Shown here: in pieces, positions 6,136 through 57,419 of the stretch
Layout: each line of letters opens with the position of its first letter
Position numbering within the stretch: the stretch's first letter is position 1
Notes under the pieces: model-generated
Seen by the model: only the letters and a program-made list of their open reading frames with translations
Database searches by the model: none
What the model was told of the DNA's origin: nothing
Made by a program: the position numbers and the translations under genes
Source of the DNA: Callorhinchus milii
Taxonomy: Eukaryota
Length of the DNA: 64,000 nt
Direction: 5' to 3'
NCBI RefSeq assembly: GCF_018977255.1
Contig: NW_024704742.1
Span: 76,510,001-76,574,000, forward strand

Positions 6136-6295
6136 TAGAGGAGAGGAAAGCTCCAGCACTGCAATGTCATAGTCTAATTCATATAGAACACTGTGATACA
6201 GATGAGTGATAATTCTTCTAATGGTTCTTGATATACCACCACCTAAAGTAGTTGACCCCATATAAGCTTTCCACAATGATGAGTTTGCCCCTCGA
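6136..6295 (-). pseudogene. Copy D protease exon SP2, truncated after DIAVLELSSPL
   Basis: RGANSSLWKAYMGSTTLGGGISRTIRRIITHLYHSVLYELDYDIAVLELSSPL, then an abrupt switch into interspersed-repeat sequence. No SP3 or SP4 found in 1-6135. Confidence 0.9.
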
Positions 6296-7490: not shown

Positions 7491-7656
7491 CCCTGGAAAC
7501 AGTGAGCTGCAGAGAGGAGCCACCTGTCAGCGATGACAGAAGCCCCACACATGTGTGACCTCCTGACCTGAAGGCTCACTTGCCAGGGCCATTCACCCTG
7601 CACCGCATTTGTTCCTCCAACAATCCTACTGATTATTTCAGGCCGAGTGCCACAAG
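7491..7656 (-). pseudogene. Copy D protease exon SP1 (open frame)
   Basis: Acceptor ccacag|CT, donor GG|gtaaat. Encodes [54 protein letters not shown]. Confidence 0.93.
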
Positions 7657-8586: not shown

Positions 8587-8652
8587 CTGGGCTTGGTTCA
8601 ATTGTAAATCCAGGAGTTGTGGATACACCTACAGTTGTTGTTGAAATAACAT
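8587..8652 (-). pseudogene. Copy D Ser/Thr/Pro-rich linker exon
   Basis: Acceptor ctctcttccag|AT, donor G|gtaagc. 66 nt, phase 1-1. Encodes DVISTTTVGVSTTPGFTIEPSP. Confidence 0.8.
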
Positions 8653-9689
8653 CTGGAAGAGAGAAGTATAATGTGTTATTAAAGCTGGATTGAAAACACA
8701 GTGCAAAAAGAAAGAATGTTGATCAAGCCAACTTCAATTTAATTTTTTATGCTGAAATGAATTAAACTGAGTAGTGAAGTTTAACCTTTGCCAACTCTCC
8801 TTCAGGATCCTTCTCATCTATTTCCCTCCCAACCCTCCCAGTGCCTTCCTTCCTGAAATTTCCTTTCTTTTCCCCTTGCTCATCTGTTCTGAGTGCTTCA
8901 TCATCAGGCTGTCAAACATCGCAAAGCACTTCAGAGGATTTCTTGTAAAGTGTAGTGACTGTGTATTTATAGTAAAAGCAGTAGCCACACTGCTCAAGGC
9001 AATGTTCCACACACAGTCATTATTTGATCAATTTTATCTGGAGGATTGTTGGCAAGTAAGGTCACCCAGAGAAATTTTTTCAAATATTGCCTTGGGATTT
9101 TTAATGCCCACTCGAACAAGCAGGTGAGATTATGATTTAGTGTCTCATCTGAAGGTCAGCACCCCTGTCAATGCAACACACCCCAACAATGCACTGGTGT
9201 GTCAGCCCAGACAGTACGAGACATTATGTGGTGTCCCAATGTGCAGCTTGAACCTGCCCTCACCGCCAACCACTGTTATGTTTGGCACAGAGGACATTTC
9301 AGTTTGTAAACAAGAAGTCAATAACATCCACGAGAAGGTAATGAAACAGGCTTGTACCTTGGAGGAAAAGATCTTGCACTTCTGTGACTTGCACTTCTGC
9401 AACTGGCGAAGCTAAGTTTACAAACCTGCAGACTGAGAGGTATTGTTTGCAGTGTGGGTGATATTCACATCGGCACTGTGGCTGGGTCTCCCCTAAACTT
9501 TACAATAATATAATAGTAATCCTTGCATTTAATATAGCACCTTATCACGTCTTCGAGACGTCTCAAAGCGCTTCATAGAGTATACTGTAAAGTGTAGTGA
9601 CTGTATATTCTGTGTGCAAAATGAGGCAGCCAATTGCGCATAGCAGTGTCCCATAAATATAAAATAGGCCCATTTCCTCCAGTCTCAAC

Positions 9690-9812
9690 ACACAGCAATC
9701 AAGCAGCATCAACGGAGAGAGGAATGCAAGTTAATGTTTCAGGTCTATGACCTTTCATCAGAACTTCTGTGTTTATATCAGATATCCAGCATCTACAGTA
9801 CTTTGCCTTCTA
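9690..9812. mobile_element. Penelope-like terminal fragment with internal inversion
   Basis: 9690-9765 matches the 23027-23105 terminal sequence on the minus strand. 9765-9812 matches 23116-23160 on the plus strand. Confidence 0.7.
9729..9765 (-). ncRNA. Minimal type I hammerhead-ribozyme-like motif (Penelope-associated)
   Basis: Minus strand reads AGTT-CTGATGA-A-AGGTC(ATA)GACCT-GAAA-C-ATT-AACT: both core boxes, a 5-bp stem II and a 4-bp stem I. Confidence 0.6.
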
Positions 9813-9818
9813 CTTAAA

Positions 9819-10143
9819 GGAGTCCTGTAGCTCAGTGGTTAGAGCACTCGCTTTGCAAGCGAGAGACCTGAGTTCATTTCCAGGCAGGGCGAAATCTTGG
9901 GCAAGTTTCCTTACTCCACGTGCCTAATAATAATCCCTACAAAACCAAAAGCAATAATAAATTGGTCATTTTCAATTTACGACTGTTTGTGGGACATTGC
10001 TGTGCGCAATTGGCTGCCGCGTTCACCCACAAATATACAGTCAATTCACTTTACAGTGTGTTCTGTGAAGCGCTTTGGGATGTCCTCCTGACATGAAAAG
10101 CGCTATATCAAATGCAAGGATTATTATTATTATTATTATTATT
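9819..10143 (+). mobile_element. Young tRNA(Ala-like)-derived SINE with L2-type tail
   Basis: A box tagctcagtgg, anticodon arm ctcgc-tttgcaa-gcgag, B box gagttcatttc. Tail gggatgtcctcc..tgaaaagcgctatatcaaatgcaagg(att)n. Apparent TSD ttaaagg. Confidence 0.9.
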
Positions 10144-10412
10144 AAAGGGAACCTGGTATGTTTCCATCTTGCAAAGTTACTCCTCAGATAACTCCTTGAT
10201 AACTAGGTTTTATCATATCACAATTATTTTACTGATCTCTATATGATATGTATGTATGCAATTTTCAGTTTGACTTTCCATTTTCATTCGCCTACAAATA
10301 CACATTCAAAACACTTTTCAGTAAATCCAGTTCTATTTAAAATAGCGATTTTAGCATTTAGAGATTGAAAGGAGTCTTAAAGTACATATGAAATGTAATA
10401 TATTTGACGTAC

Positions 10413-10594
10413 CAATGAACTGAATTGAATTCAGGTCTATGTTGAAACTATCGAGCAAAGCGATTTGGTTGATGTTAGTCATATTGCTTTGTTTCAAGCT
10501 TTGGCGGTATGTATCTTCCACTATTTCTTTTGTTATAGAGAAGTCTCCATTCGTGCTGAACATTAACAAGCTGTTCACTTTGATACTACCTGGA
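10413..10594 (-). pseudogene. Copy D SEA-domain exon 3 (GS-IKV autocleavage-type motif)
   Basis: Acceptor cttctacag|T, donor G|gtacgt. Encodes (N)PGSIKVNSLLMFSTNGDFSITKEIVEDTYRQSL...FNIDLNSIQFI. Confidence 0.85.
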
Positions 10595-10889
10595 CTGTAG
10601 AAGAGCAAGTCAAGAAAACAATTAATTTCAGTGCAGTAATCACATACCAGTTATAAGCGAACCAGGAAATCATTAACAATACATTTTACTACTGGCAAAC
10701 AGTGACAGCAGGAAATTCCTGATTGCTGGATACCCAGCATAGTGCCATCATGGACTGTATGGGTTCCAAGTCCTGATGTGGGGCTTGAATCCACGATGTT
10801 CAGTCTCAGAGGCAAGAGTGGAGGTTTCGAGAAGTCTTCAACTCTGCAAGTTAAATCCTTAGCAAGGATCCAGTCCTGGCTGGGTCAGT

Positions 10890-11930
10890 ACAACAACAAC
10901 AAGATTCCATTTATAGACCACCTTTCACGTCAGGAGGACGGCCCAAGGCACTGTACAGTTGGGTCAGGACCCGAGCAGGGGGGAAATGGTCAGGGTGAGG
11001 GGAGGGAAGGGAGGGAGCGAGGAGGGGGAAATGGTCAGGGTGAGGGAAGGGAAGGGAGGGAGCGAGGAGGGGGTAGAGAGTCGAGAGGGGAGCTGAAGGT
11101 ACGGTCAAAGAGAAAGGTCTTGAGACCGGCCTTGAAGGAGGAAAGGGAGGAAGCGGCGAAGGCACTGGGGGATAGAGTTCCAGAGCCTCGGGGCTGAGAG
11201 GCTGAAGGCCCGGCCACCGATGGTAGGGTAGTTGGGGCGGGGGATGTGGAGCAGACCGGAGCCAGAGGAACGGAGGGTACGGGCAGGTAAGTAGGGGGAT
11301 AGTAGGTCAGAGAGGTAGGAGGGAGCAAGGCCGTGAATGGCCTTGTAGGTGAGGGTGAGGATCTTGAAATCGATCCTCTGGGGATGGGGAGCCAGTGGAG
11401 GCGAGCGAGGGTGGGAGTGATGTGGTCGCGAAGCCTGGTGCGGGACAGTACACGAGCTGCAGAGTTCTGAATGACCTGCAGCTTGTGGAGGGAGGTGTCG
11501 GGAAGGCCGGCGAGGAGAGAGTTCCCATAGTCCAGCCTTGCGGTGATAAAGGCGTGGACCAGAGTTTCAGCCGCGTGAGGGGTGAGGTAATGCCGTAGTC
11601 TGGCGATATTCCGGAGGTGATGGAAGGCGGTGCCAGTTGTGGTGCGGATATGAGGGAGAAAGGACAGCTCAGGCTCGAACAGAACCCCGAGGTTCCTGAT
11701 GGCTTTGAGAGGTGGAGAGTGCAGCCTTGGATGCTGATGCTGTCAGCGCCTGAGGTGCGGAGGCGCTAACGTGAGCCAATCAGGAGAGCCTCAGTTTTGC
11801 GCCCGTTGAGCTGAAGAAGGTTGGCTCTCGTCCAGGACTCGATGTCGGACAGGCAGCTGTCAGGACATCGGGGGTCGTGGAGTTGAGGGTAGAGGAAGAA
11901 AGGTAGAGTTGGGTGTCATCCGCATACATC
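10890..11930 (-). mobile_element. Young L2 LINE 3' fragment
   Basis: MYADDTQLY motif at about 11905-11930. Tail gggccgtcctcctgacgtgaaagg...(ttg)n. Near-identical to 40835-41575 and 61885-62085. Confidence 0.9.
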
Positions 11931-12896
11931 ATGCTGTAAACATTATAAACTGTTATAACAATGTCTTATATGTTTAGATGTATCTTATCAAATATGCTTT
12001 CAGTTAACTTTCTTTTTTCCCCATCTCTGAGGAGAAAGTAAACAATTGGGTGGCCAGTCACTGTGTGAAGCCTATGTACGACACAGTCCTCACATGAAAG
12101 GCATTCCAGAGTGTAAATTGCTGTCATTGTCTAAGAAGCCTAACACCATAGGTTATTACAAATAGTTACAGTATTGTATCACTGAAAGGAACAAGAGGCT
12201 TTGGTTTCATCCCTGAGCCAAAGTGACATTTTAAATAATTCTTTCATCTTTCCAGTTCCAAACAATACATTCCTGCTGGGCCATTGATAATTGTTGTTGT
12301 TCCTTTAACTTTCTGTAAATAGCTGATCACAAAATACACACAGTAACGTCACTTTACAGGATATCCTGTGAAGTCGTCTTGATGATGTGATAAGGGGCAA
12401 TATCAAAGGCAAGGGTAATTATTATCTTTTATTTGGGGGTGAAATTAGTAAAATTTTACAAAACATTGGATGTGATGATTATTAAATCAAATCTTTTATT
12501 AAGCTATGCTAATTAACTCCCAGTATTAGAAAGTGAATTTCAGGTAATTGAACCCCCAATTCTATAAGTGTATTTACATATTTTACAGTGCTACCAACTG
12601 AGCCAGACTCAGTAACTGGATTTAGCAAGTCACAGAGGTAGCACCTTGGGATGTCCTCCCGACATGAAAGGTGCTATACAAATGTAATTTTGCATTGTGA
12701 GGTAGGGAGGAGCAAGGATTGGAGGGCTTTGAAGGGAGGACAAAGATTTTGAACTCAATCCTCTGAGGGATGGGGAGCTATTGGAGCCAGGCGAGGGTGG
12801 GGGAGATAGGGTCATGCAGCCTGATGCGGGAGACATAAGCTGCAGAGTTCTAAATGATTTGCAGCTTGTGGCGGGAACAAATTGTCAGATACATAC

Positions 12897-12964
12897 TTGA
12901 ATGATATAACTTCTGTTCCATCGAAATATTAAGACAAGATGGAGTTCATGTACACTATCTCCAA
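12897..12964 (-). pseudogene. Copy D SEA-domain exon 2 with premature stop
   Basis: Acceptor cacttacag|TTG, donor AA|gtatgt. 68 nt, phase 0-2, fits both neighbouring exons. LEIVYMNSILS*YFDGTEVISF, with TAA at 12929-12931. Confidence 0.8.
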
Positions 12965-13464
12965 CTGTAAGTGACAAAAAGAATGGTTTATTTCCTCCAA
13001 AGAAAAAAATGTTGTTCATTTTACACCACCAATTTTCTTCTCCATTCAACCTGAAAATCCCGATACAGCTACCTTCTGATACAAGTCCATTTTACAGTAC
13101 ACAGCAAGCATCACAGCCAAACCTTTCTGCCCTCACCCACCATCCAACACCTGCACTTTCTAGCAGAGGCCATCGAACAGTGAGTAGGGAGTGACAAACT
13201 TAAACTGGTTTCTCTCTCCTTGAGGCTTGATTAATGTATCTCATGGACACTCCAACTAAGATCAGCTGACACAACAGAGACCAAGGAATGGCAGCTATGG
13301 AATGTCAGCCAAGAATACAAGATCAAGTCCCAATATTGGGTTTGAACCGCAACCTTCTGATGCAGAAGCGAGAGTCCTACGGTCAGGCTAACATCTTTCG
13401 TCCCATGAATAAAATTATCCTGCTAACGTCACTCTCAATAGTTCATGTAACATCTTACAGAGCT

Positions 13465-14000
13465 ACTACAACTATAACTTGCATTTACATAGCGCCCCTC
13501 ACACAGCGTAGCATCCCAGAGGGCTTGACAGTAACGGAGCACGAAGCCGAGCCAGGGGATGGGGGAGGTGACCGTAGGTGTGATCGAAGAGGAGGGTGCG
13601 ACATGAAGATGAGGAATGAGGGAGCAAGGCGGAGGGATTGTTCCAGAGTTTCGGGGCATAGTGGCTGAAAACACAGTCACCAATGGTGAATGGAAGACAC
13701 GAGGGACAAGCAGAAGGCCTGAGTCAGTCAAGTGGAGGCAGCGGGTAGTTAGTTGGGGAGAAAACAGATCGGTGAGGTAGGGAAGTGCTTGAACATGAAG
13801 GGATTTGAAGACAAGTGGGAGGATTTTGAAATCGATCTGCTCAGTGATAGGGAGCAAGTGGTTATAACTGGTGTGATGGGGTACGGAGTTTAGTGCAGGT
13901 GAGCATTTGGACAGTCGAGTTTTGGATTAACTGGATTTTGGGCATATTGCAGCTGGGGAGACCGGCGAGGAGGGAATTTGAATAATCGAGGAGTGAAGTG
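13465..14000 (-). mobile_element. L2 LINE 3' fragment
   Basis: LDYSNSLLAGLP...IQLIQN and LPITEQIDFKIL motifs. Confidence 0.8.
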
Positions 14001-14307
14001 CTTTTGAGCAGCACTGATGGAGACCTAGGAGCAGCCCAATGGCAGGCTGACGTGGCTGTGCAGGGTGAAAAGCATAGGCAGAGTGAGACAGGGGAAAATG
14101 AAGTAGTCAAGGTTCAATTTGAAGACTGGTTCCTTAAAGTTTTAAGAACTTTGAGATATCCTCCCAAATTGAAAGACGCTATGTAAATTGTATTGTATCT
14201 GCATCTCATTTGCCAATTTAAGTGGAAGAGGAGAGAGGAGAGAGCTAGAAAAAAAAAAGAGAAAATAATTGTGTAACCGAGCTGGAAGGCATCAGGGAAA
14301 GTCTTAC

Positions 14308-14447
14308 CAATGTGATAATTTCTTGCGATAATGTGGTAAACTCGACTGACCGTCTTATGGACAATTTTTTGTCATAGGTAAGGTTCAGTATGCGGAAATC
14401 CCCCCTGAAGTAAACAGAACTGGAATTGTCAGGTACAGGTTCAGGTC
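14308..14447 (-). pseudogene. Copy D SEA-domain exon 1
   Basis: Acceptor ctttcatag|GA, donor TTG|gtaaga. PEPVPDNSSSVYFRGDFRILNLTYDKKLSIRRSVEFTTLSQEIITL matches the SEA N-terminal pattern (YF.G.F.I.N..Y...L....S.EF..L...I). Confidence 0.85.
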
Positions 14448-14682
14448 CTATGAAAGAGAAACAGAAAGAAGAACTGTTTTTACAATAAATAATAATTGCA
14501 ATAAATTCATTAATAAGAGTCAACCGGAAATTATCTCCACATCCAGTGACTTTTCCGCTCCTCCAGATGCACTAAGAAGACTATTTCAGTGTCATGGAGA
14601 CTGGGAACCTATCTGGATCAGCAATTGGTTTACCAATTCAGAGATGTATGACGTGTGTATTAACCAGTAGACTTCCTCTTAC

Positions 14683-14821
14683 CTCTAGGTGGCAGAAACA
14701 TCAACAGTAAGACAATCATTGTGATTCCAAGGATCAGACCAGCGAAAATAATCAGCAATATTATCCAAGAAGATTTCATTTTGATTATTTGTAGGTTTCA
14801 GTACTATAAGCTTCGGCTTGC
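14683..14821 (-). pseudogene. Copy D exon with start codon (ATG at 14779) and signal-anchor TM helix
   Basis: Acceptor ttcttcacag|G, donor G|gtaaga. Encodes MKSSWIILLIIFAGLILGITMIVLLLMFLPPR. An in-frame TAG lies upstream of the ATG. Joins the next exon in phase 1. Confidence 0.8.
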
Positions 14822-19101: not shown

Positions 19102-19419
19102 GGAGTCCTGTAGCTCAGTGGTTAGAGCACTCGCTTTGCAAGCGAGAGACCTGAGTTCAATTCCAGGCAGGGCGAAACCTTGGGCAAGTTTCCTTACTCC
19201 ACACGCCTAATAATAATCCCTCCAAAAACCAAAACAATAATAAATTGGTCATTTTCAATCTACGACTGTTTATGGCACATTGCTGTGCGCAATTGGCTGC
19301 CGCGTTCGCCCACAAATATACAGTCAATTCACTTTACAGTGTGTTCTGTGAAGCGTTTTGGGACATCCTCCCGACGTGAAAAGCGCTATATCAAATCCAA
19401 GGATTATTATTATTATTAT
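19102..19419 (+). mobile_element. Young tRNA-derived SINE, full length
   Basis: Near-identical to 9819-10143. Confidence 0.9.
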
Positions 19420-20505: not shown

Positions 20506-20826
20506 TAATAATAATAATAATCCTTGCATTTGATATAGTGCTTTTCACGTCGGGAGGACGTCCTAAAGCGCTTCACAGAACACACTGTAAAGTGAATTGA
20601 CTGTATATTTGTGGGCGAACGCGGCAGCCAATTGCGCACAGCAATGTCCACAAACAGTCGTAGATTGAAAATGACCAATTTATTATTGGTTTTTTTTTTG
20701 GAGGGATTATTATTAGGCGTGTGGAGTAAGGAAACTTGCCCAAGGTTTCGCCCTGACCTGCCTGGAATTGAACTCGGGTCTCTCGCTTGCAAAGAGAATG
20801 CTCTAACCACTGAGCTGCAGGACTCC
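20506..20826 (-). mobile_element. Young tRNA-derived SINE, full length
   Basis: Reverse complement of the same family. Apparent TSD caagta on both sides. Confidence 0.9.
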
Positions 20827-20879
20827 AAGTAGAACAACAACTTGCATTTATTGCATTTATGTTTTCATAAGTCCCATTC

Positions 20880-22325
20880 CACTTGAACCCTGAACCTGGC
20901 CCCGTTCATTGAGAACTGCCGGCGTGACATCAGGCATGTCAGTTTCTCCACTTCCCTCTTCCACTCAAATCTTTCTCCTTCTGAACATGCAGCACTCTCT
21001 CAGGACCAATTCTGACATCATTGTGAAACCCGTCGACAAGGGAGGTGCTGTCCTCGTCTGGCGAAAGCACCTCTACCTGGCGGAGGCTGAACGCCAACTC
21101 TCTGATGACTCCTCCTACCTACCCCTGGAACATGACCCCACACCTGATCACCAAGCCATCATTACCGAGATAGTCAATCTCCTCTGGGGAGCTTCCTGCC
21201 ACAGCCTACAACCTCATACCCTTCCAGCCACACACAGCCCGCCTCTACCTCCTCCCCAAGATCCCTTCCCTTCTGACACCCACCGCCATTTCAATAATTT
21301 TAAGTTCCCTGGCCCTGACCGTCTTCTATTTACAATGGACGTTCAGTCCCTCTACACCTCTATTCCCCACAAGGACATCCTGCAGCCCTCTGCTTCCACC
21401 GCAAACAGCGGCCTAACCAGTCTCCATCCACCATCACCCTCCTCCACCTGGCTGAGCTTGTCCTGACATTGAACAACTTCACCTTCAACTCCAACCACTT
21501 CCTCCAAGTAAAAGGTGTCACAATGGGAACCCGCATGGGTCCCGGCTACACCTGCCTGTTTGTTGGCCACCTGGAACACTCTTTGTTCTGGACCTACTCA
21601 GGTCCACTCCCTGACCAGTTCCTCAGGTACATCAACGACTGTGTTTGGGCTGCTTCCTGCTCTCACAGTGAGCTGGAACAATTCATCAATTTTGCTTCCT
21701 CCTTCCACCTCTCCATAACATTCACATGGTCCATCTCTGACTCTTTCCTTTCTCAACTTCACCATTTCCATCTCAGGGCATAGATTATCAACAGATATCT
21801 TTTACAAACCCACCAACTCCCACAGCTACCTGGACTACATCTCCTCCCATCCCACTTACTGTAAAGACTCCATTCCCTTTTCCCAGCTCTTCCACCTCCA
21901 CCACATCTGCTCTGACGATACCATCTCTCATACCAGAGCAGCTGAAATGTCTTCCCTTTTCCTCGACTGAGGATTCCCATCCACTCCAATAGGCAGAGCC
22001 ATTGTTTGTGTCCACCCTATTTCCTGCACCTCTGCCCTCACCCCTCTTTCCAGAACCGTGAAAGGGTCCCCTTAGTGCCCATCTTCAACCCGCACTGGCC
22101 TCAACATACAATAAACAATTCTCTGCCATTTCCGGTACCTCCAGCGTGATACAACCACAAAGCATATCTTTCCCTCCCCTCCCAGCATTCCAAAGGGATC
22201 GTTCCCTCTGTAAGCCTCTGGTTCATTCCTCCATCACCACCAACAGTTGCTCTCCTCTCCCCAGCACCTTCCCATGCCAGCTCAGGAGATGCATTACCTG
22301 CCCTTTCACCTCCTCCCATATAATC

Positions 22326-22376
<51 letters not shown>

Positions 22377-23165
22377 TCACTGTCCAGGGCCCCAAACACA
22401 GTTTTCAAGCGAGACAGTGATTTACGTGCATTACCACCAATATAAGTTACTGCATTCACTTCTCACTATGTGGTCCCCTCTACAATGGGGAGATGAAACG
22501 CAGATTGGGTGACTGATTTGCTGAACACCTTCGTTCTGTCCGCGAGGGCAACTCTGAGCTTCCGGTTTCTTGTCATTTCAACTCTCCCTCCCACTCGCAC
22601 TCTGACCTCTCCTTCCGCAGCGTCTCCTACGCTTTTCCAATGAGCCATAGCGCAAACTCGAGGAAATGCACCTCATTTATCTGCTACAGACCTTACAGCC
22701 CTCTGGCCTCAATATTCATTTCAACAATTTCACACCATAACAGCTCCCCTTCCTCCCTCCCTCTTCTGTGACTATTACCACATCATCTGCGTCCCAGACA
22801 CCTTTGCTCTCTCTGGTCTGCCTATTTTGTTGCAATTTCCCCCATTTGTTTTGCATTATTAACATCTCTATTCCCTCTTTTGTTGTAATTCCCCCTTTGT
22901 TTTGCATCATTTACAACTTTTTAACCCATCATCATCTGTCCTCTACCCATTTTCTCCTTTGTGTTCCTTGCCCTGCCTCCACTCTCTCTGTTAGCCCTTA
23001 AAAGCCTCTTCCTCCCAACATGCCCTAGTTCTCATGAAGTGTCGTGGACCCAAAACATTGACCCACTTTCCTTTCTCCATAGATGCTGCCTGACCTGCTG
23101 AGTGTTCCCAGCGACTTCTGTTTTTGTTTCAGATTTCCAGCATTTGCTGTATTTTGTGTTTTGTT
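20880..23165 (+). mobile_element. Degenerate Penelope-like retroelement (RT plus GIY-YIG endonuclease) with 3' terminal region
   Basis: KPVDKGGAV, FTMDVQSLYTSIPH, NNFTFN..FLQVKGVTMGTRMGPGY, FLRYIND and YKPTNSHSYL. GIY-YIG-like remnant (SYCI....CGPLY.GE.KRRL...FAEH) at about 22440-22530. Degenerate hammerhead-like motif at 23027-23063. Confidence 0.88.
22328..22376 (+). repeat. (AAT)n microsatellite inside the Penelope element
   Basis: About 16 perfect units. Confidence 0.95.
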
Positions 23166-23471
23166 TGTACTTGCAATTATATTTCACCGTTCATGCAAGA
23201 CAGTGTCTTGGAACACTGATCAATAGCAGACCTACATTACAAAAGAACACCAAATAGCAAAGTAAAATTAAAACAAAGTGGCCCAACTATAGTGTTGTCC
23301 TTTACCATTCACAAAGTGCGAGCAATAGCTTCCAGTGTAAATGTACATCACCAACATGTTTGCACAAATAAAGGCAATGGCACATCTACTTGCATTATAA
23401 ATAGAAGAGGTATTACATTAGTCTGTATCCTAATTTGTTAACATGGTTCTGCCACAAATTATTTCAGTTCT

Positions 23472-23639
23472 CTACACACCGGTCTCCTGCAGCACCCAAT
23501 CTCTGAGGGATGTGACACGAGCGTAACCGTCAGGGATATGTGGTAAACCACAGCCTAATCCTGGAGCAAAGCTTGCAATTCCAGCCTGAAGCCACGACCC
23601 ATCAGACTGTTGACAGACTAGTGGGCCTCCTGAATCACC
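23472..23639 (-). pseudogene. Copy C protease exon SP4 (open frame, Ser195 intact)
   Basis: Acceptor atcacag|GGT. Encodes [55 protein letters not shown] (TAG). Confidence 0.92.
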
Positions 23640-24224
23640 CTGTGATAAATAAAAAGCACAGTCAAAGTTACATGGTAATTATTGATGTGAAATACCATCA
23701 GGAACTATGTTTATCAAGTAGTCTCGCTTAAAAGTGAAGCATGGCATTGGGTTGAATGACATATCCTTTATAGACCAGATCTGTAGAGACACACAGCAGG
23801 TTACCTGCAAGACTTGGTTCCATTTGTATTGGTTGCTATTGTCTGAATAAAAACTGCAAACCAACCTAACAGTGGGTAAAAGACAGGGGGCTGTATCTTA
23901 AATTTTTAAACCAAATTAGAGATCAAAAGGCCTGAATGAGAATACCTGAAGATTAATAGACATAATGTTAATAGACAAATATCACTAATAATATCCTGTT
24001 CCTCTTCACCTTAAGCCTAGTGTAAGAAAAGAGAATTAAGTAGCCGCTCTGTGTAACAGAGCGCCGATAACAGCAACATTGACACAGCCTTCTCATATTA
24101 AACTAACACAACAGAGTTTCACACTATCTTAAGATAGGAAATGAATGTCTACAACAAGACTAAATAGTGATATTAACTTGTTAAACAAATGTGAAGATTT
24201 CAATGATGTGAAATAAAAGTGTAC

Positions 24225-24361
24225 CTGACAAGTGCCAATTTGTTTTCCCCAAACGCTTGCACACAACATTCTGCTGGTAACAGTAATGGTAAAGACTTTG
24301 CTACACATGGAGTTATTGATGATTTTGACACTGGCTTTTTGAAGTCTGGTTGGTACATTAC
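24225..24361 (-). pseudogene. Copy C protease exon SP3 (open frame, Gly189)
   Basis: Acceptor ttttgtag|GT, donor CAG|gtacac. 137 nt, as in copy A. Encodes GNVPTRLQKASVKIINNSMCSKVFTITVTSRMLCASVWGKQIGTCQ. Confidence 0.9.
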
Positions 24362-24979
24362 CTACAAAAAACACTCAGCTGCAATTCAAGCTTCACTAGA
24401 GGGAGACTTCAAACACACAGTCATGATCATCTTGCACGTAGTTATCTTGATAGGACACTCAGCTTAAATTTGGTATTGGTGGTATTTGATGCCGAAGATT
24501 TGCTTAGGCCTCCTTTGCCATCGCTTCCTCCAGGACATCAGGTTAAGTTAGGCCCAGACTCCTAAATGAGTTCAGAAATAATGGTAGGGGTTGTGGGACC
24601 TCCTGACCAATAGTGGTCACAATATAATTGAGTTTTGTGAGGAATTTAGTAAATTGTTCACTGTGGCATTGACCAGGTTAACCACATGGTCTTTTCTGAT
24701 TCTAAACATCCTTATGTTCGTACATTGCTTCATGATGAATCATAATCTGCCAATATACTAATTTTATATCACAAATTCAGTATCAAACAGTATGAAATAG
24801 CTATTTGTGTGGATTTCCTTCAGATTTTCAATGCTGATAAAATCACATTTGAATTATTCAGGTTTTAGGTATCACACATTCACTGTCCCTGGAACTAGAA
24901 ACAGATGCCAAGCTGTTACTTCCCATTTGTACAGCTCAGTATAGAGGCTGTTCATAAACCTAACAATTGACACACTGAC

Positions 24980-25243
24980 CTTGATATGAAAGACATCCTG
25001 TGGCTGTGCAGGTCTGAGCATTAGAGAAGACGTGGGATCTTGACGGAAGACAAATTGGCCATGTAAAGTCAGTGAACGTGAGAGGAGAGGAAATTTCCAG
25101 CACTGCAATGTCATAGTCTAATTCATATAGAAAGAACATTGTAATAAGGATGAGTGATAATCCTTCTAATGGTTCTTGATATACCACCATCTAAAGTAGT
25201 TGACCCCATATAAGCTTTCCACAACGATGGGTTTGCCCCTCGA
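24980..25243 (-). pseudogene. Copy C protease exon SP2, frameshifted
   Basis: Acceptor tttaaag|T, donor G|gtcagt. RGANPSLWKAYMGSTTLDGGISRTIRRIITHPYY, then a 4-nt duplication (25129-25136) giving TGA. Downstream frame LYELDYDIAVLEISSPLTFTDFTWPICLP...CTATGCLSYQ, with 6 nt of the GWG motif deleted. Confidence 0.9.
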
Positions 25244-26062
25244 CTTTAAATAAACAGAAACAAATATAAAACGTCAAATATGATGACCTGGACATGTTGA
25301 ACCATATTTATCATTGAACCATATTTATCGTCAAACAATCTGCCTCAGAAAAGGTTTGAATATGATGTAATAATTTACAAGAATTTCATTTTGCTTATTC
25401 ACAAGTAATTTTAATGGACCGTAAAAATCTAACATTGCAACAAAAATATTGTATTCCTGTCGACTGCATTTAATAATAATAAAAATTCCTGTATTTGATA
25501 TAATAATAATAATCCTTGCATTTTTATCATGCCTTATCACGTCTTTGAGACATCTCAAATCGCTTCACAGGATTATTCTGTAAAGTGTAGTGACATGGTT
25601 GGTGCCTTTCATGTCAGGAATGCAAGTGCTTCACATGATTTACTGTATAATGTAGTGATTGTGTATTTTAAAGTCAAAATCCTATAACCTATTTGCACAC
25701 AGTATCATGGGATGTTTAATATCCACCTGATCAGATAAGATCTCAGTTGAACACGCAAACTGGGACAACTTTGCAAGAGGTTCCTTTTACGATATAGGTT
25801 GTCTTTCCTTATTCCCCAATTACGCAGAGTCCAGGAAGCATGCTGGTTGGAGCACTCACCTTGCAAGTGAGAGGACCTTGGTTCAAAAACCGGAAAGGGC
25901 GAAACGTTAGGCAAGTTTTTACTCCACACGCCTCCATTTAACTAGCAGTATGTAGGAATTCAGATGTTAATCAATTGACGCATTGCTTTCCCGGGGTTAA
26001 TAATCCCTTCAAAAAATAATATTAATAATAATAATTTGCTCACATAATCCTTGACTGTTTTG
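25081..26062. repeat. Segmental duplicate (copy 2) of 6137-7122
   Basis: As above. Similarity stops mid-SINE at about 26062, whereas that SINE continues in the other copy. Confidence 0.95.
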
Positions 26063-26494
26063 AGAAAACTTTTCTTTACACATTGAACTGTGGTGTAAAA
26101 ACACTACAGTACCTGTTGTGACACCTCATTTTGACTCTCTAGGTTTGTTTTTTTGGATCATAAACCAACTTTAATGAAAATTCAAGCTGCCACAGTCCGC
26201 AAGAGAGCAAAGAGACAATGTCACTGTGAAATACACGGAGGAAAGCCTCAATAAATGAAAAGTTGGTTGAGTTGTTTAACCAATGGAGCAGAAATTGTAC
26301 CATTCAGGTTTGTATCTCAAATGTGTTTGTATAACACTTAAGAAGTAATAAAAACTTGAATGTTTTATAACTGTTGCAATCTGGGAAAGTTGTTTGAAAA
26401 TGCACACATCTGAAGGATGTTTGTTTCAAAGTCTTTCAACAATGAAAGTCTATTATATTATCTTGCACTTTTCATCTCAGTCCATCTGAATTTG

Positions 26495-32676: not shown

Positions 32677-32859
<183 letters not shown>

Positions 32860-34429
32860 TCAGGGTTACAGAGCGATTACTAATGCAGCTGAAAGTGAAA
32901 AAAAATAAGTGAAGAGAAACTTGGAATAAAAGAAAGATGCAGCGCTATTTTTCTAGCCAACCATAGCTTCATAGTTGCTATAAGCTCTACATAGAAGCTT
33001 ACTCCCATCATAAACTATTTACATAAAACTATACAGCATAGAAATGAGTCAGCTGGTCCATCTATGTCCTGTTCCCCTCTTTCTTAAACCAGAAAGCTGT
33101 AATTGGAAATGTCAGTTGGTAAGCATTGTTGCCTCTTAAGTCAGAATATTGTGGGTTCAAGCACCACAATGGGACGTTGGAACTTGCAGAACAGTTCCCT
33201 ATAAGGAATTTCTGGTTATTATGCTAAAATATGCTGGAATTAATGCAAAGAAAATCAAGGTAAATACAGATTAAAGAGTGATTATCCTAAACAATACATG
33301 AAGTCACATAATTTTTGATGGGCAGGTGATGGGGGTGTAGAGTTTGGTGCAAGAGAAGATACGGGTGGCGCAATTTTGAATAAATTGGATTTGATGAACA
33401 ATGAAGCTGGGGAGACCGGCGAGGAGGACATTGGAAAACTGAAGGTGGGAGGTGAAGAATATGTGGATAACAATGCATTTTTTTAGTCAGCTGGGTGTCT
33501 GACATATACAGAAACCCATGACAATGCTTAATGGTATCAAAACCAAACTGAGAATTCCATGCATTCCAACAACACATGGAAATTGCACAGATGTTTATTG
33601 GAGTAAAATGTCCACTCTCTCCCTGGAGGAACGCATCCTGCTTACCTAATTCTAGAAAGTATTAGGCCCAGTTTGGCACAAGACAAGGCTTGGGGATACC
33701 AGAGTGTGCATTGGGGTAGTGCTGGCATCTAACCGCTTAAAACCACCTAACTTACCATTGAAAACACTGTCTGGCAAGCTTTTCCACTGTGTGTCTAGCT
33801 CGAATCACCCTACCCATTAGATATTTGGCTTGCAGAGTTAATAGGAGGTCAGATAGAAAGAGTCCCTGCCCTCAATGACTGGTCTGTCCTTCCAAATCCT
33901 GCTGGTGGGCCATGCTGGCTGTGCATGGTTCTAGAGTACTCCAGGTCCACGTACTACGTACCAGGCTTACTCAGCACCAGCTGCTTAACAGATCCTCATG
34001 TGAGGGGCCTTAGCAAATAGACGTGCCCACTGTGAAGCCACCTCCAGGTTGCTTAGCAACAGGGCAATATAGGTTGGAGACCTCCCTCCGTACAGCCGCT
34101 TCCTGTGTTTGCCCAAATCCATAATCCTTGCATTTGACAGAATAATAATAATCCTTGAATTTGATATAGCGCATTTTCACATCTGCTTGATCCTGGACTT
34201 TGCAAATGGTCAGACGACTTATCTGGAATGGTTATCCAGATAACAACGTATCTAGAGGGTATACTGCTAGCTAATGATTGCTACCAGCAATAAATAAATT
34301 CAGCCTCATTTTTATACTAAATTTATCAGACTCATATGTGTGAAGAGCTAAGTTGGACCCTTAGGATTCAAACAGTCTTTAGTTTTTAGGATCACATGTT
34401 TATAGCTAAACTCCATGAACTGTTCAACA

Positions 34430-37360
34430 AAAACAACAACTTGCATTTATACAGCACCCTTCATGTGGGGGAGCGTCCCTGAGTGCTCCACAGTGGCGGA
34501 ATCTGACACCAAGCCAGGGGGAGAGGGAAGGGGGAGGTGACCGTAAGCACGATCAAAAAGGAAGGTCTTTAGGTGAAATTTGAAAGTGGGAAGGGAGGGG
34601 GCAAGGCAGGTGGATTGAGGGAGAGTGTTCCAGAGTTTCGGGGTGTAACTGCTGAAGGCATGGTGACTGATGGTGGAGCAGAGGGGACTAGGGACAAACA
34701 GGAGGCCAGAGCCAGCCGAGCGATGGCAGAGGGTAGGGGAGTGGGGGTAAAGAGTGTGGAGAGGTAGGGAGATGTGAGGGAATGAAGGGATTTGAAAACA
34801 AATGAGAAGATCTTGAAATCGATCTGTTCAGTAATTGGGAACCAGTGGAGCCTGGGAAGGATTGGTTCCTTTCCAATACACAAAATATTCAGATAGAAGG
34901 TTACAATAGCAACAACTTGCATTTATACAGCGCCCTTCAGACAGGGTATTGTTTCAGAGCACTTGATGGTGGCAGAGCACACCGCCGAGCTGGGGCAGAG
35001 GAAGGTGGCCTTAGGCTCAATCGAATAGGAAAATCTTCAAGATTGGGAAGGGGCAAGGCGGAAGGACAGAGAGAGTGTGTTCCAGTGTTTCAGGGCACAG
35101 TGGCTGAAAGCGCGACCACCAATGGAATAGAAGGTACACGGGACATGCAGAAGGCCAGAGCGAGTCGAGCGGAGGCAGCAGGCTTTGGGTTCGTGGGTAA
35201 GCAGGTCGGAGAGGTAGGGAGATGCCAGGGCATGAAGGGATTTGAAAACAAGTGTGAGGATCTTGAAATTGATCTGTTTGGCGTTAGTGAGCCAAGGAGC
35301 CTGGTTCGAACTGGTATGATGGGGGTACAGAGTTCAGTACAGGCTGCGGCGTTTTGGATCAGCTGGATCCTATGCATGACGAAGCTGGGGAAACTGACAA
35401 AGAAGGCATTTGAAACATCGTTGGGAGATGACAAACCCATGGACGAGTGGACCGTACCAATAACAACAACAGATTGCATTTATCTGATGCCTTTCATGTT
35501 GGGAGGACATCCCAAGAGCTGCACAGTTCAGGATTGGAGGAAGGCAATGGGGGTGGGGTGGGGGAGATGATCGAAGGCGGTCGAAAAGGAAGGTCTTCAG
35601 GAATGATCTGAAGATGGGGAAGGAGGGGGGCGACGCGAAGGGGTTGAGGGAGGGAGTTCCAAAGTTTTGGGGCGTAGTGGCTGAAGACACGGCTGCCAAT
35701 GATGGAGCAGAGGATTCGGGGGACGCAGAAGAGGCCGGACCTGGTAGAGCGGAGGCAGCAGGTACTGCTGTGGGGAGAGAGGAGGTTAGAGAGATAGGGG
35801 GATGCCAAGGAATGGAGGGATTTAAACACCAGAGTGAGGATCTTGAAGTCAATCCGCTGTGTGACAGGGAGCCAGTGGAGTTTGGCAAAGACTGAAGTAA
35901 TTGGGGTACGAAGTTTGGTGCAGGTGAGAATGCGGGCGGCAGAGTTTTGAATGAGCTGGATTTTGTGGATGAGGGGAGACCAGCGAGGAGGGCGTTAGAG
36001 TAGTCCAGCCGAGAGGTGACAAAGGACAAGGGTTTGGGCAGCTTTTGGGGTGAGGTATTGTCAGAGGTGGGCAATGTGGGGGAGATGGAAGAAAGCAGTG
36101 CTGGTCAGGGACCAGATGTGCGGGAGGAAGGATAACTGGGATCGAACCTGATGCTTAAGTTGCGTACGGTTCAGAGAGTTTTAAGGACAGGTCGGGTAGA
36201 GGTTAAAGAGGTTGAAACTGTGGGATAGAAGATGTCAGCGGAAGCCAAACAGTATGACTTCCGTCTTGTTGACATTTAACTGAAGGAAATTTGCTCTCAT
36301 CCAGCTCCTGATGTCTGACAGACAAGCTGACAGAACATCAGGGTACTGGGGCTTGCAGCTGGAGGCGGAAAAGTAGAGTTGAGTGTCATCCACATACATG
36401 AGGAAGTTAACTCCGTTCTGCGGATGACATCACCAAGAGGGAGCACATAGATGAGGAAGAGAAGGGGGCCAAGGATGCAACCCTGGGGTACTCCGCAGGT
36501 GACTGTGTAGAAGTGAGAAGAAAAGCCATTTGCAGAAATGTATTGCTGGCGGTTTGTAAGGCAGGACTCGAATCAAGCTAGTGCGGTACCACTGAGGTGG
36601 ATGATGGAGGACAGGCGGTGGAGGAGGATGGCGTGTTGAACGTGGCAGAGAGGTCCAGGAGGACAAGGAGGCAGAGGAGGTCCTGGTCAGGATGTCGTTT
36701 GTGACCTTCACATGCGCTGTCTCTACAAATACTACACTTGTCTACAAATTCCTTCACGTCCTTGGCACTTTCCTACCTTTCTGACCTGCTTTCTCCACTC
36801 TCCACTACCCACTGACTCCACTCAGCTGGCACTGGCCTCCTGCTCTCCACTCCACCAGCAGCGGCCACACTTTCAGCCACTATGCCTGAATCTTTGCATC
36901 TCTCACCCTCAGTTCCTTTGCCTTGCCCCCTGCATCCGTTACTTTAGACCATGAATGAAGACCTTCCTCTTTGACCGTGCTTACGGTCACCTCCTCCTTC
37001 CCCTGGCTCGCTGTCAGGCTCAGAGATGCTGCCCTGCATGAAAGGCGCTATACAAATGTAATTTGGGTTTGTTTGTTGTTGTTGCTCGGCAATCAGAGGC
37101 AGTGAGTGGGTTGCTAGGATTAAAGAATTAACAAAGATAAGGTGGGGCAAGACCATGGAGAGAGTGGGGTCAAAGATCCTGAACTCAGTCACATATCTAG
37201 TTACTGGGGATGGGAAGCCAATGGAGCTGGGTAAGAATAAGGGTGATAGGATTGTAAAGCATAGGGTGGGAAAGGACACAAGCTGCAGATTTCTGGGTAG
37301 AACTGCAGCTTTCATAGTTCTGGGTCGTCAAGTGATCAGAGCCTTGGCATAGTCAAGCAG
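34430..37360 (-). mobile_element. Pile-up of about five L2 LINE fragments (mostly minus strand; 36715-37085 plus strand)
   Basis: Repeated (caa)n tails at about 34430, 34910 and 35460. SFVTSRLDYSNALLAGLP, MYVDDTQLY and KVTNDIL motifs. Confidence 0.88.
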
Positions 37361-37522
37361 GAAACAAAATCTTCAGCAGAAAATAAAGTTATTAGTTATT
37401 ATCCAAGGAGAGATGATTGAATCATTCACACACACACTGCTGGTAAAATTATACTCTCATAGGTGAGAAAAAAGTTGTTCATTCTATTAAACTTTGGAAT
37501 AAGGTCAAAACTGCACACTAAG

Positions 37523-37849
37523 CTTGATATACACAATTTTTCCTCCATCCTGTAACTGTACAGGTCCGACCATCAGAGAAGATGTAGGACATTGACAGAA
37601 GACACAGTGGCCGTATGAAGTCAGTGAACAGTAGAGGAGAGGAAAGCTCCAGCACTGCAATGTCATAGTCAAATTTACTTGTCTTGCCATAATTGGGATG
37701 AGTGATAATCCTTTTTGATGGCTCTTGATGTATCTTCTCCTACAGTAGCTTGGGACGTCCTCCCGACGTGAAAGGCGCTCTATAAATGGAATCTTGTTGT
37801 TTTAGCTGACCCCATGTAAGCTGTCCACAGCAATGGATTGGCTTTTTTT
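37523..37849 (-). pseudogene. Copy B protease exon SP2, disrupted
   Basis: KKANPLLWTAYMGS[L2-tail insert with in-frame TAG]...(+1 A at 37712-37716)IITHPNY...DYDIAVLELSSPLLFTDFIRPLCL...CTVTGW. The donor is mutated to G|cttagt. Confidence 0.9.
37751..37802 (+). mobile_element. 52-nt L2 3'-tail insertion in a protease exon, TSD tagct
   Basis: tagct[tgggacgtcctcccgacgtgaaaggcgctctataaatggaatcttgttgttt]tagct. Absent at the homologous site of copies A, C and D. Confidence 0.9.
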
Positions 37850-38511
37850 CTGAACAAATATGCAAGTAAAATGTTAATTGCATGCACCTAGATAATTGCA
37901 GCATCAAATAAAGAACAGCTTTATTGATAAATACAGATCCTAAATACAACAGAAATATTTGGAAAAATACCAGTGCCCCAAGTTGACTAAATTGAATACT
38001 GGGTTTAGTTCTCTGGTCTCCTATAAAACCTTTATAACTAAATGCATTGTTCAAGGATTCCCCAATAGCCTGACTGGAATATTGATCTTCCAAAGGACAG
38101 CACCTCGAACAATCTGGTGCTTCCAGAGCGCTTTTTTTTATTATGTCAAATATTATTTATTTATATTATTTTTTCTATTTTGAACTCTAATTTTAGTTTG
38201 ATACTCTTAAAGGATAGTGGTGGGTTTCTGCGTGTATCAGACACATAATAATACATAGATAATATTTAATTATTTATTGCAATAGCTTAAAATAAAGTGT
38301 CAGCTGTCAGCTCAAAAGTCCACATCTTTCCTACTCAGAGGGAAGAGTACTACCAGTTAACTGTGCCAGGCAATGGCCCCCAACTCTTCCAACCAATGGC
38401 AATGATTATTTTTGGAATTTTTAATCTGTTGTGAAATGTTGCATTTTTCACCCAAAAGTATTTTTGAAAAATTGAAGCTCAAATAACCCCCTGAAAAATG
38501 GAATACTTTAC

Positions 38512-38661
38512 CCCTGGAAACAGTGGACAGCTGAGATTAGCCACTTGTCAGAGATGATAGAAGCCCCACAAATGTGTGTCCTTATCTGAAGGCTCACTTG
38601 CAGGGCCATTTATCAGTCTCCGAGTCGTCTCCACCAACAATCCTACTGGATATTTCACTAG
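38512..38661 (-). pseudogene. Copy B protease exon SP1, frameshifted
   Basis: [19 protein letters not shown](fs)[37 protein letters not shown]- CAA lacks one G (about 38601). The pro-peptide CGT.. segment is absent. Donor GG|gtaaag. Confidence 0.9.
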
Positions 38662-54045: not shown

Positions 54046-54207
54046 TTATATACCGGTCTCCTGCAGTACCCAGTCTCTAAGAGCTGTAACATGAGAGTAA
54101 ACTCCAGGTGTATCAGGTTGAGCACATCCATCCCCAAAGCTTACAATTCCAGCAAGAAGCCATGTCCCACTGGATTCCTCACAGACCAGTGGACCTCCCG
54201 AGTCACC
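54046..54207 (-). CDS. Copy A protease exon SP4 (catalytic Ser195, stop codon)
   Basis: Acceptor atcacag|GGT. Encodes [53 protein letters not shown] (TAA). G216 and G226 with D189 indicate a trypsin-like pocket. Confidence 0.95.
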
Positions 54208-54249
54208 CTGTGATTAATACAAAGCAATTACGTTACACAGTGATGGTGC

Positions 54250-54278
<29 letters not shown>
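54250..54278 (+). repeat. (TA)n microsatellite
   Basis: Seen directly, 40 nt from the SP4 acceptor of copy A. Confidence 0.95.
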
Positions 54279-54281
<3 letters not shown>

Positions 54282-54534
54282 GACGTGAAAGACGCTATAC
54301 AAATGTAATTTTGTTGTTGCTATAGCTTGTTCACTTAAGAATTAATTTAAATTTAAGAGTAACGTAGTGCATTCATCAATACAAGTTTACCAACAAATAC
54401 AGTAATGAATTCTATAAATACTAAGCTTTCAAAAACAAAATTACATCAGAATTTAGATAAACATTATCAACTCTTTAGCAAATGAATAAAAGAAAAAAAA
54501 TAAAGAGAGAGAAAACGAAGAGAGAGAAAAAAAA

Positions 54535-55215
54535 AGAACCATAAAATCTTTCAGCACAGAAGGAGGCCATTCGGCCCATCATGCCTGTGCCAGCTGAAAA
54601 GCTATCCAACTAGTCCCACTCCCCTGCTTTTACTCCATAGCCTTGTAAATTTTACCTTTGAGTACATATCCAATTCCCTTTTGAAAGCCGCTATCGAATC
54701 TGCTTCCACCACCCTTTCAGCAATGCATTTCAGTTTGCAAAACCTCTTTGGGTAAAACAAATTCTCATCTTTTCTCTAGTTCTTTTGCCAATAATCTTAA
54801 ATCTGTCCTCTGGTTACCAACCTACTCAACAGTGGAAACGGTTTCTCCTTATTTACGCTATAAAAAACCCTCATAATTTTTAACACCTTTGCTAAATCTT
54901 CCTGCTCTAAGAACAATCACAGCCTCACTTGTCTCTCCACATACCTGAAGACCCTCATCCCTGGTATAATTCTGGTAAATCTCCTCTGCACCCTCTCCAA
55001 GGCCCTGCCATCCTTCTTAAAGTGTGTTTCCCAGAATTTGATACAATACACCAGCTGAGGCCAAACCAGTGCTTTGTAAACGTTTAGCATAACTTCCTTG
55101 CTTTTGTACTCTATCCACTATTTATAAGGAAAAGGATCCCATATGCTTTTATTAACAGCTTTATCAACTTGTCCTGTCACCTTCAAAACTTTGTGTATGT
55201 GAACCCTCAGGTTAG
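54535..55215 (-). mobile_element. CR1 3' fragment in the last intron of copy A
   Basis: Reverse complement of a CR1 end (gatgggccgaatggcctccttctgtgctg...tttatggttct) and an LVWPQLVYC motif. Confidence 0.85.
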
Positions 55216-55539
55216 TCTGACAAACAGGCATTCACCACTAGCCTCTGCTTTCTGTTTACCTGCCAATTTCTCCCAAATTTTGTCCAAGCAAGAGAGAGAA
55301 AAAGAGAAAAACAAGAGAGAGAGAAAGATTCCAAAGATATTCCAAAGAGATATGGAGGCTTATTTGATGATACACGATCTAAACGTGGTAACTTACACAA
55401 GAACCTGATTTGGAGAATACCAAAAAAAGCATTTGTGGTCTATACAAACACAAATCAAAGTAAATGGAGCTCAAACAGATAAAACTAATATCCTAAACCA
55501 GACGTTCACAAAATCGTACAATAATTCTTAGGTACCTAC

Positions 55540-55676
55540 CTGGCAAGCATCAATTCCTCCTGCCAAGATTCCAGCGCACAGCATTTTGTTGGAAATTAAA
55601 TTTCCATAGGCACGTATGCATGCATCATTGCTGACAATATTTACATCAGCTTTCTGAAGAATTGTTGGAAAATCAC
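55540..55676 (-). CDS. Copy A protease exon SP3 (S1 Asp189)
   Basis: Acceptor ttttctcag|GT, donor CAG|gtaggt. 137 nt. Encodes GDFPTILQKADVNIVSNDACIRAYGNLISNKMLCAGILAGGIDACQ. Absent from the ORF track. Confidence 0.95.
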
Positions 55677-56502
55677 CTGAGAAAAGAACTTGATATTGAG
55701 ACCTTTCACCTTACATTAATGTGCACAGACAGACATTCCTCCTTTGTTTTGGATGAGTGACATTGACACCCCATGACCTGGCATTCAATTTCAGAACTCT
55801 GTAATTGCAATGGTGCCTTAGGGATGTGCCAAAGTCAGTATGTGTGTATGTGGGACAGGGAAAGGGGGTCATACCTATGGGCAGCCAATATAAAACTGGC
55901 TTGATTGCAATTTGACAACCTAACATTATACCAGCAATTTTCACCATTCTGTTCCTTGGTCAGGCCACATCTGGAGTTTTGTGTGCAGTTTTAGTCTCAT
56001 TGTAAAATAGATAAAGCGTGGACATTTAATGAAGGGCTATTAAATGATTTGAACTTAGGAAGAACTATGAGGAAAGGTTGGCCACCTAGACTTTTCTTCC
56101 TGCAAATGAGAGTTGAGAAAAGCCTCAAGGGAGGCACTTAAACTTATGAAAGTTTGAAATATTTGGAAGCAGATACATATTTCTGTGATGTCAAATTAAA
56201 AAAAAGGTTCAGAGCTTCAAATTTAAAAGAATACAGTAGAATAAGTGTTTACTTAGTAAAATGATGCTAAGCACATGGAACAAACTGCCAGCATGGGTGG
56301 AACAAGAAACTATAAATGGATTTCAAATAGGTACCAAAGGATTCAGGGCTATTAAAAAAGGACACAACAAAGAAATCTTTTGTGAAGTTGGATGGATTGT
56401 CTCGAAAGTTCGTCTATTACTGTTTGAAATGGTTACATTGGTACCATCAAAATAGCTTGGATAACTGGGTTGATTATTGACCTCAGAATAAGGCACACAA
56501 AC

Positions 56503-56768
56503 CTTGATATGAAAGGGTCCCCCATCCTGTAACTGTACAGGTCTGACCATCACGAAAGACGTGGGAACTCGATGGAAGACAAATTGGCCGTATGAAGTCA
56601 GTGAACGTAAGAGGAGAGGAAAGCTCCAGCACTGCAATGTCATTATTAAATAGACCTGGAATGCTGAAATTGGGATGAGTGATAATTCGTTCAATGGTTC
56701 TTGATGTACCTTCTCCTACAATAACTGACCCAAAAAAAGCTGTCCATAGCGATGGATTGGCATTGTTA
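56503..56768 (-). CDS. Copy A protease exon SP2 (catalytic Asp102)
   Basis: Acceptor tttag|T, donor G|gtttgt. 266 nt, phase 2-1. Encodes NNANPSLWTAFFGS...RIITHPNF...NNDIAVLELSSPLTFTDFIRPICLP...CTVTGWGTLSYQ. Confidence 0.95.
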
Positions 56769-57194
56769 CTAAACAAAGAAGGATGTAAAATGTTAATCAC
56801 ACAGACTTAGATACATGGAGTAGCATTAAAGAATATATTTTTATAAAAAGATCTTAAATACAACAGAAATATTGGGAAAAGAACACATCAGTGAATTGTG
56901 CATATTTTAAATTAAACAATGTTTCATTTTAATAATCTTTACATTGGATATAGCACTTAATCGTATAATTGAAACATCCCGAGGTGCTTCACAGGATTTA
57001 CCAGAGGTTAGCGACTTCTGAGCAGCAGCCAATTTAGACACAGCAACATCCCACAAATAACCATGAAGGAAAAGATGGAAACATGCAGTTCCATAAACAG
57101 ATGAGGTAAATTTCACATTAAAGCCATTTCTTTTTTTTTTAAATGTTTTTGAAAAGCTAATGCACTTTAAAAGTTGTAAAAAGAGGAATATTTA

Positions 57195-57419
<225 letters not shown>

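Follow-up and report, generated by a model that had tools for sequence, protein, structure and literature searches.

A probably selected specificity shift kept in a dead, lineage-specific TMPRSS11-type protease paralog of Callorhinchus milii

The protease cluster and its divided member

The window analyzed here, a 64-kb stretch of Callorhinchus milii DNA, carries four protease-domain copies on its minus strand, designated A, B, C, and D, and a fifth copy, E, is located on the plus strand 14-33 kb outside the window. The exons of copy E match P0008, a C. milii protein labelled TMPRSS11C at its source, which contains TM, SEA, and trypsin domains. Further beyond copy E lies a rhodopsin-family receptor, which we take to be a GnRH receptor; a GnRH receptor flanks the human TMPRSS11 cluster. 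Copy A (57358-54046, minus strand) has intact protease exons, and its TM exon lies apart from these (protease exons, 54046..57358), just past the window end at 64813-64698 in window numbering. The two intact neighbours, A and E, both read D189/G216/G226. Copy B (32680..38659, minus strand) is a pseudogene with frameshifts, a repeat inserted in its Asp102 exon, no exon-9 match, the motif GVSGG, and a pocket that is canonical at G216/G226. The remaining two copies, C (25243-23472) and D (ending at 6137), both on the minus strand, are broken and represent a 3′ half and a 5′ half, respectively.

Copy C consists of a broken Asp102 exon (24980..25243, with Asp102 kept at 25112-25110), a penultimate exon (exon 9, 24225..24361), and a last exon (exon 10, 23472..23639) that bears Ser195 (TCA, 23633-23631), Gly227, and the stop codon TAG. 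Copy C is without a His57, SEA, or TM exon and without anything 5′ of intron 7. Copy D holds exactly what copy C is without, i.e., the TM, SEA, and stem exons, the R-IVGG site, His57, and half of the Asp102 exon. Its N-terminal exons (8587..14779, minus strand) begin with an exon at 14779-14683 that encodes a hydrophobic N-terminal run, matches the TM exon of copy E weakly at the DNA level (E=0.03), and is unjoined to copy C. There follow three SEA exons (14447-14308, 12964-12897, and 10594-10413), all of which match the SEA exons of copy E, and two stem exons (9396-9358 and 8652-8587). Pfam scores one copy D exon of 46 amino acids as SEA at E=3e-5, just under the curated cut-off, and gives no match for a second. 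The activation/His57 exon (7491..7656, minus strand) is intact, with R-IVGG and AAHC (His57 at 7504-7502), and the 5′ part of the Asp102 exon (6137..6295, minus strand) is in frame and cut off at 6137.

Copies C and D have in common a minus-strand block of ~1 kb (25081..26065 in C, 6137-7126 in D) that is 94% identical and whose homology ends upstream within a SINE-like repeat; their introns differ by 31 substitutions over 798 sites (K2P 0.04). Given their complementary exon content and this block, C and D are halves of one recently duplicated gene. Together they provide R-IVGG and His57 (in D), Asp102 (in both), Ser195 (in C), Asp194, and the cysteines of exons 9-10, and hence a full catalytic triad. 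The halves stand in reversed order, the 3′ half (C) upstream of the 5′ half (D), an order that, like the end of copy D at 6137, is given by the assembly alone and is bridged by no listed contig. As an arrangement, the 20 kb from 6137 to 26065 hold the exons of one gene in permuted order, flanked by a 1-kb direct repeat of 94% identity, and this would fit a circular intermediate as well as a tandem duplication combined with two deletions.

Both halves are dead. The Asp102 exon of copy C bears a 4-nt duplication near 25130 that causes a frameshift and a 6-nt deletion near 24994 by which Trp141-Gly142 were lost, and the second SEA exon of copy D contains an in-frame TAA (12931-12929). The covering contigs repeat these lesions, in 4/4 runs for copy C and in 2/2 DNA runs for the stop of copy D; one X2 contig is without the 4-nt duplication but bears D alleles. 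The pocket exons of copy C are covered by contigs from 4/4 whole-genome DNA runs of one study, with no variant at the pocket codons, so that its sequence is not an assembly error. No RNA run was listed as carrying the locus, and, among the pieces listed, two putative RNA runs matched copy D in repeats only; neither result says anything on expression.

By descent and architecture, as read from exons and trees, this divided gene is a TMPRSS11 (HAT/DESC)-type TTSP. The sequence-only reading, an earlier interpretation of this DNA made from its letters, had taken copy C for a TTSP paralog that nests within this cluster, and the TM and SEA exons of half D as well as the trees bear this out. Two trees make E the sister of C+D (94/91; 95/86) and put C+D within a chondrichthyan TMPRSS11-like clade (100/97; 92/93), separate from TMPRSS9; they were built without mammalian TMPRSS11, and the larger one flags C+D as a long branch. 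The larger tree also unites the four chimaera copies (93/88) and sets them apart from the shark/ray genes, so the paralog looks lineage-specific; conversion among neighbours could also cause this grouping. A stretch of copy D at 7449-7674, which spans the His57 exon and its flanks, is 94% identical to the corresponding part of copy E, vs 73-76% for most other D/C exon matches; gene conversion between the inverted neighbours D and E at this exon is probable from these identities and may blur the tree.

With HAT/DESC proteases, C+D shares the TM-SEA-stem-protease exon order, an S1A protease domain with its triad and an Arg-Ile activation site (R-IVGG), a C-terminal TGV-stop as in DESC1 and HAT, clustered genes, and the TMPRSS11-like placement. 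It is unlike them in G189/A216/D226 and a longer loop, where theirs is a trypsin-like D189/G216/G226 site and the six human TTSPs profiled preferred Arg at P1 (PMC4161349, excerpt), and also in being split and dead rather than an intact gene. The primate HAT/DESC cluster contains pseudogenes as well (PMC3154331, excerpt). Tandem domains of the Polyserase/TMPRSS9 kind were considered and rejected: each copy ends in TGI- or TGV-stop like HAT and DESC1, copies A, D, and E each have their own TM exon, and the trees keep the two groups separate.

The S1 pocket of copy C

The last two exons of copy C, in which the sequence-only reading had seen an S1 pocket rebuilt at 189, 216, and 226, do carry the codons that were claimed: Gly189 is GGC (24236-24234), followed by Thr190, Cys191, and Gln192, the Ala at 216 is GCT (23567-23565), and Asp226 is GAC (23531-23529). 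Both exons have open frames and AG/GT splice sites, and Ser195 is kept, also as described. The residue numbering holds in alignment, with exon 9 residues 1-38 corresponding to chymotrypsinogen 150-187 (1acb_E), where the gap-free alignment is that to chains of this protein in 1afq/1ab9. Against porcine elastase 1bru, its top PDB match, exon 10 aligns gap-free, and against HAT and DESC1 a gap of two residues is needed; the lengthened 217-220 loop reported earlier thus matches the pancreatic-elastase loop length exactly.

The account of three independent changes plus an insertion has to be revised. Around position 216, copy C reads TTT GCT CCA GGA TTA GGC TGT, where E has TTT GGT AAA GAG TGT, A has TTT GGG GAT GGA TGT, and B has TTC GGG AAA GAA TGT, and in the MAFFT alignment the GGA of copy C at 23561-23559 pairs with the conserved Gly216 codons of A, B, and E. 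The old Gly codon is thus still present, and Ala216 opens a 6-nt insertion, GCT CCA (Ala-Pro, 23567-23562), and is not a point change of Gly216, which makes of Ala216 and the insertion a single event. The inserted Ala would occupy strand position 216 in the elastase register.

The changes of copy C at conserved sites lie almost wholly in S1 determinants, namely Y172F (24293-24291), G184S (24257-24255), L185W, G187K (24245-24243), D189G, V213A (23576-23574), A221G, G226D, and V227G, to which is added the Ala-Pro insertion at 216-217; the catalytic residues and the oxyanion segment are unaltered. Two other origins of these residues were rejected. A compensated frameshift in the 184-190 stretch is ruled out, as copy C departs there from E and A by point changes alone, with no gap in the alignment. 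For conversion from an elastase or chymotrypsin gene of a shark, no donor is seen among the 27 other last exons listed, none of which has Asp226 (survey of 40 matches in total, with the GDSG motif at 28/30 loci), and the flanking introns of copy C match those of E.

Clustering of the changes and selection

The changes cluster in the pocket beyond chance. The S1 network was set at 172, 184-192, and 213-228, a set fixed after the changes had been seen, with members from PMC2723916 (loops L1 and L2, position 172) and PMC11172050 (189/216/226), both in excerpt, and with loop limits taken from general background; the reference consisted of 24 distinct shark/ray TMPRSS11-like domains together with A and E. 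On this basis, 9/17 conserved network sites changed vs 1/25 other conserved sites of exons 9-10 (p=4e-4), or vs 8/86 over the whole domain (p=1e-4), and the split is 9/15 vs 1/27 when 191-192 are counted outside the pocket. Pocket changes number 0-2 in each of the 26 functional domains vs 10 in copy C, and with 236 domains, most of them TMPRSS9, as an alternative reference, the split is 6/11 vs 0/20 (p=6e-4). Under simulated uniform neutral decay, the joint probability of such a split does not exceed 8e-5 at any of the 4 depths simulated. In the same neutral simulation both exons stay open in 0.48 of copies at d=0.02, the likely decay depth, and the open frames of exons 9 and 10 are therefore no evidence of function. 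Decay was recent, with a C-D intron distance of 0.04 vs a branch length of ~0.2.

Codon models were applied to the four local copies only, with C+D as a composite of two 4%-diverged duplicates. The whole-branch dN/dS that had been proposed as a check proved uninformative: omega is 0.72 for C+D (p=0.22 vs 1; p=0.29 vs the background of 0.51), and a signal emerges only in the site-partitioned tests. When sites are partitioned, omega on the C branch is 1.3-2.2 in the pocket vs 0.35-0.57 elsewhere (p=1e-4 to 1e-3), the value outside the pocket being below 1 (p=0.03-0.05). For pocket omega above 1, p is 0.03 with whole-domain branch lengths, 0.21 for exons 8-10, and 0.53 for exons 9-10. Uniform decay is rejected by these data, and positive selection is not cleanly separable from local relaxation; the earlier claim of a selected pocket shift before decay is supported, in that the pocket change looks selected rather than decayed, with only marginal evidence for pocket dN/dS above 1. 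Omega is also high in the intact copies (background ~0.5; free-ratio estimates of 0.81 for E and 0.47 for A), which suggests that the whole cluster is fast-evolving or weakly constrained.

The reading that we favour, at a probability of about 0.6, is that these exons formed the 3′ end of a TMPRSS11-type membrane protease, now dead, whose S1 pocket would have been remodelled by selection while it was functional, with a predicted P1 preference for large hydrophobic residues and some Lys/Arg. An E-like TM-SEA-protease gene would first have split from E, with ~0.2 neutral substitutions per site on its branch, its pocket would then have been remodelled, a recent duplication (4% intron divergence) would have produced C and D, and complementary halves would then have been lost before decay set in.

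The strongest competitor, with a real but distinctly smaller chance of being correct, is local relaxation, in which a folded copy stayed under selection after duplication while its P1 specificity was irrelevant, its pocket loops drifted, and its likeness to Gly189/Asp226 enzymes arose partly by luck. Pairwise pocket pN and pS, at 0.38 vs 0.40, are equal as local relaxation would also make them, the excess of omega over 1 lacks robustness (p from 0.03 to 0.53), and the codon changes, GGA to GAC and GAT to GGC, are simple ones; yet every point estimate of pocket omega exceeds 1, and the loss of charge at 189 with its gain at 226 is a pairing that recurs in working enzymes (PMC7914634 and PMC11172050, excerpts). 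Drift would moreover have had to produce an in-frame insertion of just the pancreatic-elastase loop length while the catalytic residues and oxyanion segment went unaltered.

Predicted specificity and relatives

In a remodelled pocket of the kind favoured here, Gly189 would open the floor and remove its charge, and Asp226 would place a negative charge on the wall. Ala216, Ala213, and Gly227 would leave the entrance open, and Thr190 would shield Asp226 only partly, the result being a crab-collagenase or insect GAD/GGD-type pocket on a cell-surface enzyme. By analogy with such enzymes, P1 is predicted to be a large hydrophobic residue, with some activity on Lys/Arg, unlike neutrophil elastase, and activation at R-IVGG would be performed by a trypsin-like neighbour, e.g., A or E. 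Pro217 and Gly227 might, however, have spoiled rather than retuned the pocket.

Gly189, a small residue at 216, and Asp226, all found in copy C, are likewise those of crab collagenase and other brachyurins and of the insect GGD/GAD chymotrypsin-like peptidases, such as Tenebrio SerP38. The G/A/D triad is listed among the insect chymotrypsin-like peptidases, GAD/GGD enzymes favour chymotrypsin substrates, and the crab enzymes cut both types (PMC11172050, excerpt); 189G and 226D occur in crustacean enzymes (PMC10926435, excerpt). These are secreted digestive enzymes of invertebrates with a separate descent, whereas copy C comes from a vertebrate membrane-anchored TMPRSS11, and the likeness is one of working only. 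The engineered rat trypsin D189G/G226D carries this pair of substitutions in a trypsin-like framework and retains cleavage at basic P1 residues, with Lys over Arg (PMC7914634). Compared with that mutant, copy C has some eight additional changes in loops that surround the pocket.

Neutrophil elastase has Gly189 and Ala213. The earlier description of a neutrophil-elastase-like pocket in copy C is nonetheless not sustained: Asp226 is present, and Val190 and Val216 are not. An acidic residue at 226 is common to copy C, neutrophil elastase, proteinase 3, cathepsin G, and NSP4, and the neutrophil enzymes bury it mainly under Val190/Val216 (PMC7914634, excerpt), whereas copy C has Thr190/Ala216, a longer loop, and a different gene lineage and exon context. 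With Thr190/Ala216 in those places, together with Ala213 and Gly227, the pocket is expected to stay open. A true elastase-type protease with small aliphatic P1 is accordingly improbable, even though Asp226 occurs as in the neutrophil enzymes, the loop has the length of that of porcine elastase 1bru, the top match of exon 10, and Thr190 shares beta-branching with Val190; position 216, occupied by bulky residues in elastase-type pockets, is Ala in copy C, and the G/A/D triad is classed as chymotrypsin-like (PMC11172050, excerpt).

An intact G189/A216/D226 paralog, thought earlier to exist nearby perhaps, was not found in this genome, in which only A, B, C, and E were close among 67 candidates, and a second genome search returned only C itself as close among 19 candidates. 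The TM-SEA DNA of copy D has a single match in the genome, in which no further copy of either C or D turned up, and the intact A and E have trypsin-like pockets. Contigs of copy C have single-copy depth in four runs, bearing in mind that contigs can merge near-identical copies; this depth and the scoring of genome candidates led to the rejection of a hidden intact duplicate. No intact carrier of the triad was present among the protein-collection matches (17; the best 120 of 7046; the best 120 of 285), and no other chimaera was among the matches listed. In 373 motif-bearing protease domains, position 189 is Asp in 362, Ser in 9, Asn in 1, and Gly in 1, and Asp226 occurs in none of the 24 shark/ray domains listed. 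The lone Gly189 belongs to P0170, a recent skate paralog (source name TMPRSS9-like) that keeps Gly216/Gly226 and has independently lost the S1 aspartate alone. In the open-access library searched, no account of the locus turned up, nor any of a TMPRSS11 protease that is non-tryptic. Plain pseudogene decay or an assembly artefact, with the pocket changes as random damage, is very improbable: both halves are damaged, whole-branch omega fits a value of 1, and no intact copy was found, but non-pocket conserved sites of the same exons changed at only 1/25, the uniform-decay simulation fails, and contigs of all four DNA runs agree at the pocket codons.

Selective remodelling of the pocket, the reading preferred above, leads to a wider and tentative proposal, on balance doubtful, that a membrane-anchored HAT/DESC protease without trypsin-like specificity arose in chimaeras through rebuilding of the entire trypsin-to-chymotrypsin determinant set (172, loop 184-190, and 213-227), and that it may still be intact and working in other holocephalans. 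If true, nature would here have repeated the classic specificity-conversion experiment in a vertebrate cell-surface protease. The move of charge from 189 to 226, with the loops and 172, is in itself a separate natural instance of a specificity switch that neutrophil, crab, and insect enzymes also show. With the close, unchanged sister E as a control, the steps of the switch are testable by resurrection. The G189/A216/D226 triad itself was already known, and the only genome at hand contains the gene in dead form; what the locus adds is probably a selected specificity shift kept in a dead, lineage-specific paralog.

A separate observation concerns the SEA domain in this family. Every mammalian member of the HAT/DESC group has a single SEA domain (PMC3154331, excerpt). 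In copy A, a TM exon is present and no SEA exon match lies between it and the activation exon, and the shark/ray proteins P0176, P0180, and P0182-P0186, as well as the first half of P0022, consist of TM, a short stem, and protease without SEA. These SEA-less shark/ray proteins form one clade (support 100/99), which points to a SEA-less TMPRSS11-like gene conserved in cartilaginous fish. Copy A falls outside this clade in the protease-domain tree, for which conversion is a possible cause. P0022, from the basking shark and named TMPRSS9-like, looks like an annotation fusion of adjacent SEA-less and SEA-bearing genes.
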